Below, piece by piece: positions 1 through 5,964 of a stretch of DNA of 5,964 nucleotides (within the stretch, counting starts at the first letter, position 1; every line of letters starts with the position of its first letter). The stretch is from IMG/VR virus record IMGVR_UViG_2740892423_000011, one strand, 5' to 3'. This DNA is from a virus. Taxonomy: Duplodnaviria > Heunggongvirae > Uroviricota > Caudoviricetes. Both the position numbers and the translations under genes were made by a program. The notes beneath the pieces are model-generated. The model did not search any database. It saw nothing but the letters and a program-made list of their open reading frames with translations, and was not told the origin of the DNA.

Positions 1-697
1 GCCTTAATGGGCCGATATCACCGTTTTCGCCCTGACCTTCACTGGTAGGGATAAGGTGCAGGAACTCTTCCGAACGACGAAAAATCAGGCCAAAGGCTTC
101 GTTGAAAATCCTCAGCGCATTAACACCACGGATTTTCAGCTCCCCGGTCATGGTGTCACCATCACGCTGAACGGCATTTTTTGCCTTGTCCATCGTGGGT
201 TTTAATCCGAGGTTTTCAACAGCCTCATCCTTATCTTCCACATCCGAAAGATTCCTGTCCTGTCGCAGAAACAGACCATCCCCGGTTGCCACATTCAGCA
301 TGACCTGCGCACTTTCTGCCACTGCCAGCCGGAACTGCAGTGTGGCTGTCACACCGTTTTCCGGTTTCTCAATGGCTGCACAACTTCCGACGGCATAAAG
401 CACACCATCGGTGGTCAGCAGCCCCGCTTCCCTGACCGTAAATCCCCCCGCGCCCTCCGGCAGTACAAGATACGCAATAAACTGGTTTTCCTGATCAGGC
501 GATACCGTCAAACGTGAGATGGTGCCGCGATAAACTTCCCTGACCAGCGCCGTCTGCCCTGCCTCTGGTGTGACAGCATTTCCGTTCCCGTCCCCCACAA
601 CAAACCCGTCCAGCACCACCGGTGCACCACGCGCCGCAGACGCAGCCTCCAGCGCCTTTCCCCTGTTTGTCAGAATACTGCAATGTTTCGTGGTCAC
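1..697 (-). CDS. Tail fiber protein, N-terminal portion (P2 gpH-like); 3' end lies beyond the window start
   Basis: Not in the ORF track because there is no stop inside the window. Manual minus-strand translation from GTG at 697..695 (GGAG 6 nt upstream; alternative TTG at 715..713) is open for 232 codons to the window edge. It begins VTTKHCSILTNRGKALEAASAARGAPVVLDGFVVGDGNGNAVTPEAGQTALVREVYRG and later contains LVLPEGAGGFTVREAGLL and NAVQRDGDTMTGEL. These resemble the conserved N-terminal baseplate-attachment region of P2 gpH as recalled from memory. It sits immediately downstream of gpI, the canonical position. Confidence 0.7.
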   Translation of the reverse strand, partial: MTTKHCSILTNRGKALEAASAARGAPVVLDGFVVGDGNGNAVTPEAGQTALVREVYRGTISRLTVSPDQENQFIAYLVLPEGAGGFTVREAGLLTTDGVLYAVGSCAAIEKPENGVTATLQFRLAVAESAQVMLNVATGDGLFLRQDRNLSDVEDKDEAVENLGLKPTMDKAKNAVQRDGDTMTGELKIRGVNALRIFNEAFGLIFRRSEEFLHLIPTSEGQGENGDIGPLR

Positions 698-698
698 G

Positions 699-1259
699 TT
701 ATTCTCCCGCCTCAATCACCACATCAATATGCGCAGTCACCGCGCCACCAACATAAAACTGGCTGTCCTTTCCGATATCCGTATTTACGTCAATGGTGCT
801 CAGACCGCTGCGTAAATTCTTGGCCTTAATGACCAGCGCCCTGACCTGACTGTAAAGCACACTGTCAGCACCTTCCCGCAAAAACAGCTCCACACGAAAG
901 GTGTACGGTTTTTTGCGCGGTGAATCCTGCCACCACTCTTTGATTGCTGCCGGAACACCAACCGCACCAAGCGCCCGCAGCACTGCCCCCGCCGTTCCCC
1001 GGTGCTGATGCACATATGCCGCATCACGTAAAATTTGCCGCTTCTGCTCTTCACTCCAGTCATCCTGCCAGAAATCCACAGCAAACTCCCAGGCCAGCAT
1101 CGGCAACAGATGCGATGGACAGGTGTCGGGGTTCTTCACCTTTCTGACCATATCCGTATCAAGCGTCAGGATGCTTTCTGTTGTGGCCTGCTCCTGTACC
1201 CGCTCCGGCCTGACAGCGGAAGGCGGCAGAAGTGAGCGATACGTCTCCGCCATCATCAC
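699..1259 (-). CDS. Baseplate assembly protein, P2 gpI-like (tail protein I family)
   Basis: 186-codon ORF from the track. Its GTG start at 1259..1257 overlaps the gpJ TGA stop, with in-frame ATGs at 1256 and 1253 preceded by AAGAGG. Size matches P2 gpI (~176 aa) and it lies between the gpJ-like and tail-fiber genes. The translation contains MLAWEFAVDFW, which I associate with tail protein I. Confidence 0.78.
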   Translation of the reverse strand: MMMAETYRSLLPPSAVRPERVQEQATTESILTLDTDMVRKVKNPDTCPSHLLPMLAWEFAVDFWQDDWSEEQKRQILRDAAYVHQHRGTAGAVLRALGAVGVPAAIKEWWQDSPRKKPYTFRVELFLREGADSVLYSQVRALVIKAKNLRSGLSTIDVNTDIGKDSQFYVGGAVTAHIDVVIEAGE

Positions 1260-2161
1260 ACCTCTTTACGCGTCACATTAACAGCGGCACAACGGGGAGC
1301 CGTACCGGTTGCCGGTTCAATATCAGCCCGGGGACTGGACAGAATAACCCGCGCCACACCAGTCTGTTGCAGTGCGGCGTAAATGGCGGACAGCGGCACC
1401 ATGCCATTAATCCGATTTGCCAGCCGGGTATAAGACAGCAGCGTGTTTTTTGCATTCTCCAGCACTTCACCAGCATCCGGACCGTCCGGTATTTCCAGCT
1501 CAGCCGTCACGGAATAGTCATTAATAATGGCGCTTTTCACCGTCACAAAATCCGTCAGCGGACGAATTTCATCAGCATTCAGCCGCGCACTGACCGCGTC
1601 CAGCAACGCCTCGCTGGCAGCGCCATTTCCTTCACGGGACAACACGTAGACATCCACCTCCCCCGCTCGCCCGTGCTCTTCCGGACCACAGGCATCAGCA
1701 TCCAGTACATCTTCATCAGCAGAACGGGCATGAAAACGATAGGCATTGCGGGCACCTGCGGTATTCAGTTGCGACCAGGACAACTGGATGCGTTCGCGAA
1801 AAGCATCGTCCTCTTCCATAATCGCATCCGTCGGAGGCACGGCATCCGGATTTGCCGGAACAACCACCATACGTTCGACATTGAACGTCGCACCAATCTG
1901 ATCGAGATCGGCCTTCTGTGCACTTGCCAGAAAAACAGCCCGCACGGCATCATTCACCCGCTGAAAAGCCAGGGTAAGCTGAAAGGCTGTCACTTCGCCC
2001 TGCTTGTAAACCGGGTCGGATTCCACCAGTGCATCAAATTCAGGATCCAGTTCGCGCAGACGTGCCAGCCAGGCCCCGAAAATCACCGACGCATCAGGCA
2101 CCACGATGGCATCCGGTACGGGCAAATCCGAAAGATTGATCACATCATAACTTTCTGCCAT
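1256..2161 (-). CDS. Baseplate assembly protein J (P2 gpJ-like, Baseplate_J family)
   Basis: 301-codon ORF; P2 gpJ is ~302 aa. Conserved-looking segments include INLSDLPVPD, RVNDAVRAVFLASA, NAYRFHARSADEDV, YVLSREGNGAASE, IRPLTDFVTVKSA and VPLSAIYAAL, which parallel P2 gpJ as recalled. The ATG at 2161 overlaps the gpW 3' end by 17 nt. Confidence 0.85.
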   Translation of the reverse strand: MAESYDVINLSDLPVPDAIVVPDASVIFGAWLARLRELDPEFDALVESDPVYKQGEVTAFQLTLAFQRVNDAVRAVFLASAQKADLDQIGATFNVERMVVVPANPDAVPPTDAIMEEDDAFRERIQLSWSQLNTAGARNAYRFHARSADEDVLDADACGPEEHGRAGEVDVYVLSREGNGAASEALLDAVSARLNADEIRPLTDFVTVKSAIINDYSVTAELEIPDGPDAGEVLENAKNTLLSYTRLANRINGMVPLSAIYAALQQTGVARVILSSPRADIEPATGTAPRCAAVNVTRKEV

Positions 2162-2498
2162 AAACGGTTATTCCTCCTGTTGACACCTGTGTACCGGTTT
2201 CCGTATTCGTCCCCGTGATATCCACCACGCACCCGGTCTCATCTTCCGGAAACGTTACGATCACTTTTGACACTTTCAGCCGGGGTTCCCAGCGCGCCAG
2301 CGCCGTCGCCGTGGCAGCAATTATGCGCAGCCTCAGCAGGTCATCCCGGGGAGAGTCCAGCAATTCAAAAAGATCGCTGCCGTAATCCCTGACCAGAACA
2401 CGGCTTCCCACTGGCGTGTTCAGAATATCGCTGACTGACTGGCGCAGATGCGCCGCACCGGACAGGCGCTTCCCCGTCCGGCAGTTCACACCATTCAT
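2145..2498 (-). CDS. Baseplate wedge protein W (P2 gpW-like, GPW/gp25 family)
   Basis: 117-codon ORF; P2 gpW is ~115 aa. The motif DILNTPVGSRVLVRDYGS parallels P2 gpW DILRTPVGSRVMRRDYGS (from memory). The ATG at 2498 lies 2 nt after the gpD TAA stop (2501..2503). Confidence 0.85.
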   Translation of the reverse strand: MNGVNCRTGKRLSGAAHLRQSVSDILNTPVGSRVLVRDYGSDLFELLDSPRDDLLRLRIIAATATALARWEPRLKVSKVIVTFPEDETGCVVDITGTNTETGTQVSTGGITVYGRKL

Positions 2499-2500
2499 GA

Positions 2501-3688
2501 TTATTTTTTTCCTGATCCGGTACCAAAATAATCCGGCGGCGTTTTATCACCGGATTTTTTGCTTTTGATTTCAGCCACCAGATTAAACGTGAAGGTAAAG
2601 CCTGAAGAAGAGAGGGAAAACGCCAGTGACTCCACGAGCCAGCGGCGATCTTCCCGCTTACCAAATCCGGATGTCACCACGCCGGATTCGGCGGTCATGG
2701 CAACATATGAAGGACGGCACGGCCCTGTCAGCGTCATTTTCCGGCTGTTGCGTTGCGCCTGTGTTTTTTTTGACTTTGCCTGTTGTTCAGCCGTTTCCTT
2801 TTCCGGCTGCGTGTACGGACTGGTTACAGACGAGCCGTCATGCTCCACGGTTGCTGTTTTGGTTCGCCCGTCAGCCTTGTCAAAATAACGAACCGTGATT
2901 TTTTCTTTCTTCTTTTTTTTCTCACCACTGCCAACAGAACTTCCCCGTTCACCTTCCTGATAATTCCAGGATGACACCACGGAAGGTGTCAGCGTCACGG
3001 TCCTAAGGGGCGCACCCGATACGGTGGTTCCGGCACCCTGCTCCAGAAACAACCAGTAACCTCCGGCAGGTTTGCTGACGGCGTTATACGTCCGGGCAAG
3101 GCGGGATAACAGGCTGGCATCCGATTCTGCCACCTGATCAACATGGGGAATGCGGATCCCCGCCAGCTTCTCCGCCACCCGGGCCTTCAGTCCGTTTTCC
3201 GTGGCAACGGTTTTCACCAGATCACCCAGCGTGAGATTGTCCCAGCTTCGTGTTTTCTGATTCAGCACATCACCGGACTGCTTTTCCGCATTCATGGGAG
3301 CTGCGGTAGCATAAATTTCGATCCGGCGTGGCGGGCCGCTGCTGCTCACGCCGCACACCACAAACCAGCCCTTGTCCACCAGATTACCGTTAAACCCCAG
3401 CGCCACCCGCAGACGCGCCCCCTTTGTCGGCAGGGGCAGCGTTTCAGAAAGCAGCGTGATTTTCAGTTCATCAGACCTGGCGGTGGCTCCGCCGTAATCC
3501 GTCAGGGTGATATCCACAAGATAACGGGCCAGCACCCGCGTGATATCCCACCCTTCAGCTGTCACCCGATACGCCGGGCAGAATTCCCGGACGGTCGTGG
3601 CAATGGTTTCCTGTTTTTTCTCACTGTTCAGGGACTCCTGATACGCAGCATTTATCGCCTGCAGCTGTTCTGATAATGACGTCATCAT
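2501..3688 (-). CDS. Tail hub / late control protein D (P2 gpD-like), intact copy
   Basis: The track ORF is 2501..3706 from a GTG inside the gpX 3' end. The start is more likely the ATG at 3688 or 3685 (MMTSLSEQ), preceded by GGGAGGAG. Length (~395 aa) matches P2 gpD (387 aa). LAGIRIPHVDQ parallels P2 LAGIKIPHIDQ, and a lysine-rich linker GEKKKKKEK mirrors the K-rich segment of P2 gpD (both from memory). Confidence 0.8.
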   Translation of the reverse strand: MMTSLSEQLQAINAAYQESLNSEKKQETIATTVREFCPAYRVTAEGWDITRVLARYLVDITLTDYGGATARSDELKITLLSETLPLPTKGARLRVALGFNGNLVDKGWFVVCGVSSSGPPRRIEIYATAAPMNAEKQSGDVLNQKTRSWDNLTLGDLVKTVATENGLKARVAEKLAGIRIPHVDQVAESDASLLSRLARTYNAVSKPAGGYWLFLEQGAGTTVSGAPLRTVTLTPSVVSSWNYQEGERGSSVGSGEKKKKKEKITVRYFDKADGRTKTATVEHDGSSVTSPYTQPEKETAEQQAKSKKTQAQRNSRKMTLTGPCRPSYVAMTAESGVVTSGFGKREDRRWLVESLAFSLSSSGFTFTFNLVAEIKSKKSGDKTPPDYFGTGSGKK

Positions 3689-3881
3689 CTCCTCCCTTAA
3701 TCCCACAGGCTGTATGGCGACTCAGACACCTGTTGTGTGATTTCAGGCAACACAATGCGGATCCCCGCCGGATAAACCGCCCCCTTATCTGCCAGCCCCT
3801 GATTGGCCTCCAGCACAAGAGTGAGCACGGCAGACAGATTTTCCGTGCCGTAATGCGTGGCGCAAATCGCATCAAGCACAT
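2943..3881. repeat. Direct repeat copy A (~939 bp), covering the gpD 5' region plus gpX 3' region
   Basis: By-eye alignment at a constant offset of 963 nt to 3906..4844: about 30 substitutions and no indels (~97% identity). Copy A ends exactly at the N run. Confidence 0.9.
3697..3881 (-). CDS. Tail protein X (P2 gpX-like), copy A; N-terminal ~11 codons lost in the assembly gap
   Basis: Open frame from the gap edge to TAA at 3697..3699, translating VLDAICATHYGTENLSAVLTLVLEANQGLADKGAVYPAGIRIVLPEITQQVSESPYSLWD. This is near-identical to the intact copy B at 4660..4875. The track ORF 3697..3915 spans the N run and is a chimera. Confidence 0.6.
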
Positions 3882-3891
3882 NNNNNNNNNN
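3882..3891. other. Run of 10 N: scaffold or assembly gap of unknown true length
   Basis: Ten consecutive n characters seen directly in the sequence; 10 or 100 N is a common placeholder for unsized gaps. Confidence 0.95.
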
Positions 3892-4651
3892 CTCCGGTAG
3901 AGCTCCCCCGTTCACCTTCCTGATAATTCCAGGATGACACCACGGAAGGTGTCAGCGTCACGGTCCTAAGGGGCGCGCCCGATACGGTGGTTCCGGCACC
4001 CTGCTCCAGAAACAACCAGTAACCTCCGGCAGGTTTACTGACGGCGTTATACGTCCGGGCAAGGCGGGACAACAGGCTGGCATCCGATTCTGCCACCTGA
4101 TCCACATGGGTAATGCGGATCCCCGCCAGCTTCTCCGCCACCCGGGCCTTCAGTCCGTTTTCCGTGGCAACAGTTTTCACCAGATCACCCAGCGTGAGAT
4201 TATCCCAGCTTCGTGTTTTCTGATTCAGCACGTCGCCGGACTGCTTTTCCGCATTCATGGGGGCAGCAGTAGCATAAATTTCGATCCGACGCGGCGGGCC
4301 GCTGCTGCTCACGCCGCACACCACAAACCAGCCCTTGTCCACCAGATTACCGTTAAACCCCAGCGCCACCCGCAGACGTGCCCCCTTTGTCGGCAGGGGC
4401 AGTCTTTCAGAAAGCAGCGTGATCTTCAGTTCATCAGACCTGGCGGTGGCTCCGCCGTAATCCGTCAGGGTGATATCCACAAGATAACGGGCCAGCACCC
4501 GCGTGATATCCCGCCCTTCAGCTGTCACCCGATACGCCGGGCAGAATTCCCGGACAGTCGTGGCGATGGTTTCCTGTTTTTTCTCATTTTTCAGGGACGC
4601 CTGATACGCGGCATTTATTGCCTGCAGCTGTTCTGATAATGACGTCATCAT
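3892..4651 (-). CDS. Second copy of the gpD-like N-terminal region (~254 codons), 3'-truncated at the N gap
   Basis: Minus-strand frame MMTSLSEQLQAINAAYQASLKNEKKQ ... NYQEGERGSSTG runs into the N run. It is ~97% identical in nucleotides to 2943..3688 of the intact gpD, with about 6 amino-acid differences across the shared region (E to A, N to K, S to N, W to R, T to R, P to T). The ATG at 4651 has the same GGGAGGAG context. Confidence 0.6.
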
Positions 4652-4844
4652 CTCCTCCCTTAATCCCACAGGCTGTATGGCGACTCAGACACCTGTTGTG
4701 TGATTTCAGGCAACGCAATGCGGATCCCCGCCGGATAAACCGCGCCTTTCTCTGCCAGCCCCTGATTGGCCTCCAGCACAAGAGTGAGCACGGCAGACAG
4801 ATTTTCCGTGCCGTAATGCGTGGCGCAAATCGCATCAAGCACAT
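3906..4844. repeat. Direct repeat copy B (~939 bp), partner of 2943..3881
   Basis: Same alignment as copy A. Similarity starts 14 nt after the N run and ends at 4844 (acat), after which copy B continues into unique gpX N-terminal and gpU sequence. Confidence 0.9.
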
Positions 4845-4875
4845 CCCCGTCACGGGTTATCCAGATCGTCGGCAT
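4660..4875 (-). CDS. Tail protein X (P2 gpX-like, LysM-like), intact copy B
   Basis: 71-codon ORF; P2 gpX is 67 aa. MPTIWITRDGDVLDAICATHYG ... PYSLWD parallels P2 gpX MKTFALQGDTLDAICVRYYG ... NLWE (from memory). The ATG at 4875 overlaps the gpU 3' end, and its TAA stop at 4660..4662 lies just before the gpD copy-B start. Confidence 0.8.
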   Translation of the reverse strand: MPTIWITRDGDVLDAICATHYGTENLSAVLTLVLEANQGLAEKGAVYPAGIRIALPEITQQVSESPYSLWD

Positions 4876-5329
4876 AATGTTTCAGCTCCAGACTCCACTT
4901 TTTGTTACGGTGCCCACCGCCAGGCAAAAAACGGTCGGTGGAATCAGAAAAACGCTCCACCACCCACCATCCCAGCACATCACCTTCTCCGCTGACCAGC
5001 AGTTGCGGCTCAGCCTTATTCGCCAGGTCATACAGCGTGTTCACCGCCTCCGTCCCCGACTTCCCCAAAAAGGCGTGCGATTCCCCTTCAAGGCGAACGG
5101 TTCGCCCGTTCTTCCCGGTGTACTGCAGCAGACTCTGCTGACCGATGCGCGCCTGCTCGCTCCAGGTCCACCCCGCCTCACGGGTCAGCTGGTTATATGC
5201 CGTGGTATCCACGGAAAAGGCGAAATCCCCCAGCATCAGCATGACTCTGGCATCTGCAGCACCACGGAGATAACTGTTGTCACGCTGAAGGCTGTCTTCA
5301 GCGAGAGCAATAACCGAACCCACACTCAC
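4850..5329 (-). CDS. Tail protein U (P2 gpU-like)
   Basis: The track ORF is 4850..5350 (GTG start). I prefer the in-frame GTG at 5329..5327, which overlaps the tape-measure TGA (5326..5328) as GTGA and has GGAGGA about 9 nt upstream, giving ~159 aa (P2 gpU is ~159 aa). Later ATGs at 5242 and 5236 (MLMLGDF) are alternatives. The translation contains DFAFSVDTTAYNQL and LLVSGEGDVLGWWVVERF, typical of the gpU family as I recall it. Confidence 0.75.
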   Translation of the reverse strand: MSVGSVIALAEDSLQRDNSYLRGAADARVMLMLGDFAFSVDTTAYNQLTREAGWTWSEQARIGQQSLLQYTGKNGRTVRLEGESHAFLGKSGTEAVNTLYDLANKAEPQLLVSGEGDVLGWWVVERFSDSTDRFLPGGGHRNKKWSLELKHYADDLDNP

Positions 5330-5964
5330 CAGACACTTCCTCCATCCCACAACGCATTATTACCACTGAAGGTCGGGTTGTTTTTCGTCATACCGGCAAT
5401 GGCGTCCGCAATACCCTGTTCGCTCTGTCCGGGCTGCGCAACAATGTTGAAGTTATAATTCTTCACGCTGTTGTCATTCAGCTGTGCGCCGGACTGTCCG
5501 CCCTCAACAGGAATGGCCTGCACGGCAGCCTGCCATGCTCCCGCACTGGCAAAAGGATCATCCTGTTTTCCGGCAGATCCTGCCTGCGCTGCCGGCAACG
5601 AAAAATCGAACGTTTTTTCCGGCGTGAGGTAACTGTTCACCGATTCATGAAACGCATCCGTATCCACAATGCCCATAAAGCCCTTCGCGGCGTTATATTT
5701 TTCACGGACATTCTTTTCAAAATCCGGATTATTTTTCAGTTGCTCATCAAGCCAGGCATCCTGCCCGCTGTTCCGGGCCACTGTCCGGGCAGCGGTCATG
5801 TCACCACGCCCGACATACTCCAGAATCTGCTTCTGATCGCCCTGTTCATCCGGTAATAACCAGGCGAGTTTTTTGGCTACTGCAAAAATAATTTTTCCGA
5901 CAAAAATGACGCCTTCGCCGAACTTCAGGGCCGCCGGATACAGCGTGTCCCTCAGAAAAGACAC
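5326..5964 (-). CDS. Tail tape-measure protein, C-terminal portion (5' end beyond the window)
   Basis: The frame is open from the window edge (the leading M in the track is a GTG artefact of the edge) to TGA at 5326..5328. The Gly/Ala/Gln/Asn-rich C-terminus (…NNALWDGGSVW) sits immediately upstream of gpU, which is the tape-measure position in P2-like tails. Assignment is by synteny and composition only. Confidence 0.55.
   Translation of the reverse strand: MSFLRDTLYPAALKFGEGVIFVGKIIFAVAKKLAWLLPDEQGDQKQILEYVGRGDMTAARTVARNSGQDAWLDEQLKNNPDFEKNVREKYNAAKGFMGIVDTDAFHESVNSYLTPEKTFDFSLPAAQAGSAGKQDDPFASAGAWQAAVQAIPVEGGQSGAQLNDNSVKNYNFNIVAQPGQSEQGIADAIAGMTKNNPTFSGNNALWDGGSVW

Follow-up and report, generated by a model that had tools for sequence, protein, structure and literature searches.

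The locus described here raises the question of where its tail spike is encoded, as the gene for a gpD-like baseplate hub is followed directly by gpW, with no gpV-like spike gene between them. An earlier note on this DNA had proposed that the spike is encoded elsewhere or that the lineage uses another puncturing device. The window (the whole stretch of DNA analysed, 5,964 bp) is an entire draft contig (JRGD01000167.1, assembly GCA_000754845.1) with no flanks, and an apparent gene absence in a short contig can simply mean that the gene lies outside the contig. It is very probable that the window represents the distal half of a P2-type contractile-tail cluster of an E. coli prophage (...T-U-X-D-W-J-I-H, one strand), and that the gpD-gpW adjacency is a known gene-order variant and not the mark of a missing or new puncturing device.

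ORF and profile analysis placed all window genes on the minus strand (Table 1). The Pfam gathering score was exceeded for six of six families among the window ORFs (PF05954, PF04965, PF04865, PF09684, PF06995 and PF05489), and the window thereby contains the gpD hub, gpW, gpJ, gpI, gpU and gpX of a P2-type tail/baseplate module. The start region of gpJ overlaps the end of gpW by 17 nt, and among the contigs read an identical copy of the gpJ protein is present on 24. At the fibre end, the phiP27 tail fibre gene is 95% identical at the DNA level to window positions 8-253. At the other end, the homologue of the window tape measure in L002, a longer related contig described below, matches the tape-measure PHROGs 9483 and 8125.

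Table 1. Features of the 5,964-bp window, in order of position
Feature	Position	Strand	Evidence or remark
gpH-like tail fibre, N-terminal 232 aa	1..697	-	PF12571 in gene call; contig end cuts gene
gpI-like baseplate/tail protein, 184 aa	699..1253	-	PF09684, 1.6e-38; gene call on record
gpJ-like baseplate wedge, 301 aa	1256..2161	-	PF04865, 2.9e-25
gpW/gp25-like baseplate wedge (sheath initiator), 117 aa	2145..2498	-	PF04965, 6.8e-16; phrog_43, 1.9e-36
D/W junction	2496..2503	-	gpD TAA 2503-2501, 'tc' 2500-2499 intergenic, gpW ATG 2498-2496; read from sequence
gpD-like baseplate hub, 394 aa	2501..3685	-	PF05954, 2.3e-9; phrog_52 tail protein, 1.3e-101
Second gpX copy (LysM 'glue' protein), 5'-truncated	3697..3879	-	PF05489 in gene call; begins just past N gap; within 946-bp repeat
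Extra gpD copy, 3'-truncated, N-terminal ~257 aa	3872..4648	-	Runs into N gap
Run of 10 N, scaffold gap	3882..3891	.	
gpX (tail protein X, LysM), 71 aa	4660..4875	-	PF05489, 3.5e-15
gpU-like tube initiator, 159 aa	4850..5329	-	PF06995, 3.4e-30; gene call on record
Tape measure protein, C-terminal 212 aa	5326..5964	-	Contig end cuts gene; placed between tail assembly chaperone and gpU in L002

The earlier note had placed the gpD stop at 2501 and the gpW start at 2498 with a 2-nt spacer, which is exact in the sequence, and its argument that a gene of ~200 aa cannot fit there holds, since only two intergenic bases are present. The left end it gave for gpD, 3706, is correct for the longest ORF (GTG 3706, 401 aa) but not for the gene, whose called start is the ATG at 3685, after a GGGAGG Shine-Dalgarno and just past the gpX stop; the source-contig record has a gene call with exactly the 394-aa product. 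A scan of positions 2000-3900 found no promoter- or terminator-like sites at the junction, and the 2-nt spacer suggests translational coupling.

One place in which a spike could be encoded without a gene of its own is the hub, if gpD were a VgrG/Pvc8-like hub-spike protein. The RefSeq name of the orthologue ('contractile injection system protein, VgrG/Pvc8 family') and the 677-position profile of its best PHROG, phrog_52, would fit such a fusion, but gpD covers only positions 176-521 of that profile, and its 394 aa compare with 387 aa for P2 gpD (1,164-nt gene). By phmmer, gpD residues 38-366 of 395 align to positions 3-317 of the R2-pyocin hub chain 6u5h_C (E=1.5e-24), an end-to-end alignment with a chain of 329 residues. 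A Pfam profile search of gpD returned neither a PF04717 OB domain nor an apex motif, and on the sequence evidence no stretch longer than ~35 residues is left without assignment. Fused proteins of the VgrG/Pvc8/Afp8 type combine a gp27-like hub, a gp5-like OB fold and a beta-helix in one polypeptide, a composition that gpD does not have, and the relatives described below encode a separate gpV. Judged by its sequence, gpD is a hub only, with the fused spike domain absent, and we assign the fusion a virtually negligible probability. A 5-aa deletion near the C-terminus distinguishes the window gpD from that of L002.

No gpV or gpV remnant was found when gpV of the relatives was searched by tblastn against the six frames of the 5,964-bp window. 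A single match (25 bits, 24% identity, E=0.005 in a 6-kb database) lies on the plus strand, antisense to the well-supported gpU, and was rejected as chance. Six longer contigs (L002-L007) with an identical gpJ and 98.6-99.3% DNA identity to window positions 1-3881 carry, in series, a 206-aa PF04717 protein, sheath, tube, chaperone, tape measure, U, X, D, W, J, I and fibre. The 206-aa protein is a gpV homologue (L002:3039-3659). Its gene belongs to this co-directional tail cluster, where it comes immediately ahead of the sheath gene and ~5 kb upstream of gpD. The protein matches PF04717 (2.5e-7, 31.4 bits against a cut-off of 23.8), the GpV Apex motif weakly, the full-length P2 gpV crystal sequence 3qr8 (residues 6-202, E=1.3e-21), the R2-pyocin spike 4s37 (5e-10) and the phrog_9992 baseplate assembly protein (5.8e-28). 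The HxH apex histidines (H189/H191) are invariant in an alignment of eight relatives and P2, and in complete E. coli genomes the same gene, ahead of the sheath gene, bears the RefSeq name 'phage baseplate assembly protein V'.

The whole 5.96-kb contig has no separate gpV spike of this kind, with OB domain and C-terminal HxH apex; 21 of 21 related loci have one. A lineage without a gpV-type spike, puncturing by other means (a PAAR-only or a tape-measure tip, for example), would account for the window, in which gpV-like sequence occurs nowhere and D abuts W, but every longer relative, including the contigs with 99% DNA identity, has an intact conserved gpV with the HxH apex before the sheath gene. 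Because gpV is conserved at 55-100% identity over its full length across at least six genera, the gene can be argued to be in use, and a spikeless lineage is extremely improbable. Of the two options offered by the earlier note, the spike encoded elsewhere has stood, with gpV before the sheath gene in all of the 99%-identical contigs, in E. coli prophages, in two phages and in other genera, and the other device is unsupported. The earlier note had also set out that finding a gpV-like gene at another place in the cluster would make this a known order variant, and that is the arrangement found in the relatives.

The source strain presumably carries gpV on another contig of a split cluster. A 946-bp repeat made up of a partial X and a partial D flanks the 10-N gap (window 3899-4844 against 2936-3881, 96.6% identity). 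The half of the contig with the extra gpD is 99.7% identical to the JNEC-KY178 prophage, and the other half is 99.2% identical to L002. The 10-N join probably brings two related prophage variants together in a chimeric scaffold. Many E. coli genomes have two or more matching places, and a short-read assembly broken up with a 96.6% repeat is the expected outcome of two co-resident related prophages.

The source-strain prophage might instead be defective and encode no spike, either gpV or the upstream half of the tail cluster having been lost; that the draft assembly breaks up the cluster, and that X-D is abnormally and partially duplicated at the N gap, could be taken as signs of this. We consider it very unlikely: the window ORFs are intact except for those cut by the N gap or the contig ends, fragmentation and repeat fit two co-resident related prophages in a short-read assembly, and both parental types (L001-like and L002-like) carry gpV. 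It is, in our estimate, very unlikely that the source-strain copy of the cluster lacks gpV and forms a particle that is spikeless or capped by another protein, or that the partial X-D repeat at the N gap reflects a genuine tandem duplication of the hub region.

To return to a gene-order variant as the explanation, we performed a tblastn synteny scan of 21 related loci, drawn from six or more enterobacterial genera. The order Neck1-p189-V-FI-FII-E-T-U-X-D-W-J(-I) was found in 19 of the 21. One further locus ends after V-sheath-tube and its cargo inserts, and the remaining one, from Serratia rubidaea, has the P2 order V-W-J-I...FI-FII-E-T-U-X-D, with proteins 40-69% identical and a tape measure only 30% identical. 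The D-W adjacency was thus found again in 19 independent related loci and is therefore neither chance nor an assembly artefact; the 2-nt spacing is kept in the E. coli loci, and the D and W alignment ends lie 5-46 nt apart in all loci, a value that includes the stop codon and unaligned termini.

The claim of a non-P2 order in the window is upheld by comparison with the P2 record. The P2 order was taken from that record and from a Peduoviridae Klebsiella phage, and it runs V-W-J-I-H-G and then FI-FII-E-E'-T-U-D, whereas in the window D is followed by W and in the relatives V is followed by FI. Nor does the window have the Mu-like order, for which phiP27 served as reference (tape measure, DNA-circulation protein, hub, V-like spike, W-like, J-like, I-like), as U and X precede the hub and nothing lies between D and W. 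It does have the order of the lineage formed by yong2, Chris1 and the E. coli prophages, in which U-X-D is contiguous and D stands directly before W. Literature searches on the tails of yong2, Chris1 and the Stx2e prophage gave no paper on this arrangement of the genes.

Judged by gene order, the variant is a single swap of the two tail blocks of P2 in which V keeps its place at the front. The P2 arrangement R-S / V-W-J-I-H-G / FI-FII-E-E'-T-U-D would have become (tail completion)-V / FI-FII-E-T-U-X-D / W-J-I-H-(assembly) by exchange of the two blocks; V would have remained behind the tail-completion genes, and would now stand directly ahead of the sheath gene and ~5 kb upstream of gpD, with the wedge genes W-J-I coming after gpD. 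We infer that the P2 order is ancestral, a direction given by parsimony from one in-clade relative with P2 order and the outgroups.

A conventional baseplate can be expected from the homology with P2 and the R2 pyocin. In P2, gpD is the hub and gpV the spike (bioRxiv 10.64898/2026.09.14.750843). Here a gpD trimer would form the hub and a gpV trimer (OB fold, beta-helix, iron-binding HxH apex) the membrane-piercing spike beneath it, with gpU above the hub, gpX as glue and gpW and J2-I wedges surrounding, and the particle would presumably assemble as in P2. No new puncturing device is indicated, and the significance of the locus is small. P2-type tail modules occur in two block orders that are one swap apart, with the spike gene staying beside the tail-completion genes, and a record of both orders is useful to annotation pipelines and to synteny-based searches for tailocins and prophage tails.

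Among known systems, prophages in complete E. coli genomes (e.g. the Stx2e prophage of JNEC-KY178, NZ_AP045174.1) and draft contigs (e.g. DANAVN010000070.1) have 96-99% DNA identity to the window, with the identical order V-FI-FII-E-T-U-X-D-W-J-I-H and the same 2-nt D/W junction; they differ in that X and D are single-copy, whereas the window has the extra partial X-D around the 10-N gap. Hafnia phage yong2 (MZ516527) and Citrobacter phage Chris1 (ON041214) share the tail order, in which the sheath gene comes straight after gpV and gpW straight after gpD, and have lambda-like head genes (terminase, portal, ClpP-capsid fusion) upstream, but protein identity is only 45-81% and the gap between D and W alignment ends is 42-46 nt versus 5 nt. 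Enterobacter phage Arya and Pseudomonas phage PPpW-3, larger phages whose gpD matches over ~80% of the query, and Halomonas phage phiHAP-1 were set aside as sharers of the variant, as in each the tail cluster ends with D like that of P2.

The Mu-like clusters (phiP27, SfV, Mu) likewise have their tail genes in one co-directional cluster that opens with sheath and tube and closes with baseplate wedge and fibres, but have a DNA-circulation protein, hub, V-like spike and W-like protein, and the gpU and gpX Pfam families are absent ahead of the hub. Of the order T-U-X-D-V-W-J-I-H that the earlier note gave for Mu-like and xenorhabdicin-like clusters, the place of V between hub and W holds for phiP27; in the Mu-like clusters the DNA-circulation protein, in place of U-X, precedes the hub. 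phiP27 had been the expected model, since the best complete relative is an Stx2e prophage, and was dropped as having a Mu-like tail with only tail-fibre DNA in common with the window.

The R2 pyocin of Pseudomonas aeruginosa is a tailocin without head genes, and its own genes presumably stand in the P2 block order (PA0616 V ... PA0628 D). The hub chain solved for it, 6u5h_C, is the one to which gpD is most similar, and its spike 4s37 is matched by gpV. P2 and the Peduoviridae have homologous V, W, J, I, FI, FII, E, T, U, X and D, with V after the tail-completion genes, but V-W-J-I-H-G form one operon and FI-FII-E-E'-T-U-D a second operon downstream, whereas in the present lineage V and W are separated by the F block. 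P2 does not have gene X between U and D (P2 record; bioRxiv 10.64898/2026.09.14.750843), and in the R2 pyocin X adjoins the hub gene, as it does in the window (bioRxiv 10.64898/2026.09.14.750843).

Genes in the window were assigned by Pfam search, and its coding capacity lies entirely on the minus strand (see table). On that strand the junction between the hub gene gpD and the wedge gene gpW reads ...GGA AAA AAA TAA tc ATG AAT GGT..., with the gpD TAA at 2503-2501 followed by 2 bases and the gpW ATG at 2498. These coordinates are exact and bear out the earlier note's claim that no spike gene separates gpD from gpW, since a gene of ~200 aa cannot fit in 2 nt. A six-frame tblastn search of the window with relatives' gpV as query found no gpV remnant; its sole match (25 bits, 24% identity) was antisense to gpU and was taken as chance. 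Our scan of the D/W junction detected no promoter-like or terminator-like site, and the 2-nt spacing suggests that gpD and gpW are translationally coupled.

Features of the window, with the basis of each assignment
Feature	Position	Strand	Basis or remark
Tape measure, C-terminal part	5326-5964	minus	position in L002 (longer draft contig, ~99% identical to the window)
gpU	4850-5329	minus	PF06995, 3.4e-30
gpX	4660-4875	minus	PF05489, 3.5e-15
gpD, truncated copy	3872-4648	minus	runs into N gap
N run	3882-3891		10 N scaffold gap
gpX, 5'-truncated copy	3697-3879	minus	gene call on record
gpD, full length	2501-3685 (longest ORF to 3706)	minus	PF05954, 2.3e-9
gpW	2145-2498	minus	PF04965, 6.8e-16
gpJ	1256-2161	minus	PF04865, 2.9e-25
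gpI	699-1253	minus	PF09684, 1.6e-38
Tail fibre, N-terminal part	1-697	minus	gene call on record

A fused hub-spike was considered for gpD and rejected. The protein is 394 aa long (P2 gene D measures 1,164 nt), its residues 38-366 align only to a hub chain (residues 3-317 of the 329-residue R2-pyocin hub 6u5h_C, E=1.5e-24), and Pfam search gave no OB-domain or apex match in it, so “VgrG/Pvc8 family”, its product name in RefSeq, refers to nothing beyond the shared hub fold. At its C-terminus (window 2540-2560) gpD has 5 residues fewer than the L002 orthologue (NASKSD replaced by S), and it carries a lysine-rich low-complexity stretch, GEKKKKKEK (about 2900-2925), that is absent from the R2-pyocin hub.

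The window is the entire WGS record JRGD01000167.1 (GCA_000754845.1, 5,964 bp), without flanks on the same contig, so the remaining tail cluster must sit on other contigs of this draft assembly and the presence of a spike gene cannot be judged from the window. The 394-aa gpD occurs on exactly one contig on record, JRGD01000167.1. A 946-bp direct repeat (2936-3881 and 3899-4844; 32 mismatches, 96.6% identity) flanks the 10-N run, so that a portion of gpX and, from the N-terminus, two thirds of gpD appear twice. On its left side the contig shares 99.2% identity with L002-type prophages and 96.0% with the E. coli JNEC-KY178 Stx2e prophage; on its right side (3892-5964) identity is 99.7% with JNEC-KY178 and 98.3% with L002. 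X and D are single-copy in all relatives. This pattern fits a host with two related prophages, whose overlapping contig ends a scaffolder joined, and the 10-N join is thus probably a chimeric scaffold artefact rather than a real duplication. Both parental types (L002-like and JNEC-KY178-like) carry gpV.

Relatives were chosen by identical gpJ protein; 24 contigs were read and six are shown (98.6-99.3% DNA identity to window 1-3881). All six share one gene order: genes for head closure and tail completion (Neck1) come first, then those for a 189-aa protein and a 206-aa PF04717 protein (31.4 bits; gathering cut-off 23.8), followed by sheath (489 aa), tube (168 aa), tail assembly chaperone (99 aa), tape measure (552 aa), gpU, gpX, gpD, gpW, gpJ, gpI and tail fibre. 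By phmmer against PDB sequences, residues 6-202 of the 206-aa protein matched full-length P2 gpV (3qr8, E=1.3e-21), and the protein also matched the R2-pyocin spike 4s37 (5e-10) and two C-terminal fragments of P2 gpV (3aqj, 3qr7). It further matched phrog_9992 “baseplate assembly protein” (5.8e-28) and, weakly, the GpV Apex motif, and its apex histidines HxH (here H-D-H-P-G-D-S-G-G-T-T) were invariant in an alignment of eight relatives and P2 gpV. RefSeq names the orthologue in complete E. coli genomes, directly before the sheath gene, “phage baseplate assembly protein V”; such annotated orthologues occur in one Stx2e prophage at 96% DNA identity and in another prophage at 73%. On the PF04717, 3qr8/4s37 and phrog_9992 matches, the HxH apex and the RefSeq annotation, we assign the 206-aa protein as a genuine gpV. 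Of the two explanations in the earlier note, a spike encoded elsewhere is thus supported by gpV before the sheath, as seen in relatives rather than in the source assembly, and a different puncturing device is not supported. The conserved 189-aa protein (L002 2477-3046; phrog_1072, 2e-48; faint Mu gp37 similarity), whose gene overlaps the gpV start by 8 nt and keeps its position in 21 of 21 related loci, may correspond to gpS, a tail-completion protein of P2.

In the P2 baseplate, three gpD form the hub above a trimeric gpV spike with an iron site, six gpU join hub to tube, gpX acts as glue, and the wedges consist of gpW and J2-I triplexes (bioRxiv 10.64898/2026.09.14.750843). By homology, a P2-like architecture would be expected for the window's lineage, with composition and assembly unaffected by gene order; what differs is only that its tail genes all form one co-directional array headed by V.

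The deposited Hafnia phage yong2 and Citrobacter phage Chris1 share the relatives' order, and a gpV scan of one genome per species returned 12 loci, in Citrobacter (4), Scandinavium (2), Enterobacter, Pantoea, Rouxiella, Serratia and two unclassified Enterobacteriaceae. Synteny was determined by mapping 13 reference proteins with tblastn onto 21 related loci, the window's own contig being left out; Neck1-p189-V-FI-FII-E-T-U-X-D-W-J(-I), where p189 is the 189-aa protein, was found in 19. The Rouxiella sp. T17 locus has V, a 1.4-kb insert (10619-12061; two opposite-strand ORFs), sheath, tube, a 6.2-kb insert (14029-20235) and E before the locus ends; the inserts look like cargo (moron) genes. 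The Serratia rubidaea NCTC12971 locus (8792-20039; proteins 40-69% identical, tape measure only 30%) has P2 order, Neck1-p189-V-W-J-I-(fibre)-FI-FII-E-T-U-X-D. In this locus the alignments of Neck1, p189, sheath, tube and D are each broken into two or three segments; this suggests frameshifts, due either to prophage decay or to errors in sequencing.

Among complete relatives, the Stx2e-encoding prophage of E. coli JNEC-KY178 (noted at 41789-43024) is the closest. Its lysis, stx and tRNA region is phiP27-like and its tail module is the P2-type variant, not phiP27's Mu-like tail, so Stx2e phages are mosaic, and at least two types of tail occur among them. Its tape measure gene (24344-26002) is labelled “AAA family ATPase” in RefSeq; position and tape-measure PHROG matches indicate a misannotation.

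The P2 record runs R, S, then V-W-J-I-H-G (V operon) and FI-FII-E-E'-T-U-D (F operon). A Klebsiella phage of the Peduoviridae shares this arrangement, and Arya, PPpW-3 and phiHAP-1 likewise have D last in the tail cluster. In phiP27, taken to represent Mu-like tails, sheath, tube, tape measure, DNA-circulation protein and hub precede V-like, W-like, J-like, I-like and fibre genes. The window's lineage fits neither order; the earlier note had called it non-P2. Relative to P2, the blocks [W-J-I-H-G] and [FI...D] are exchanged, with V still behind the tail-completion genes. P2 order occurs in every outgroup and in one relative inside the clade, so the most parsimonious reading would be that the blocks swapped once, in the ancestor of this enterobacterial lineage. 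The window's D-W layout is a variant gene order of the P2-type tail module that is already deposited and annotated.
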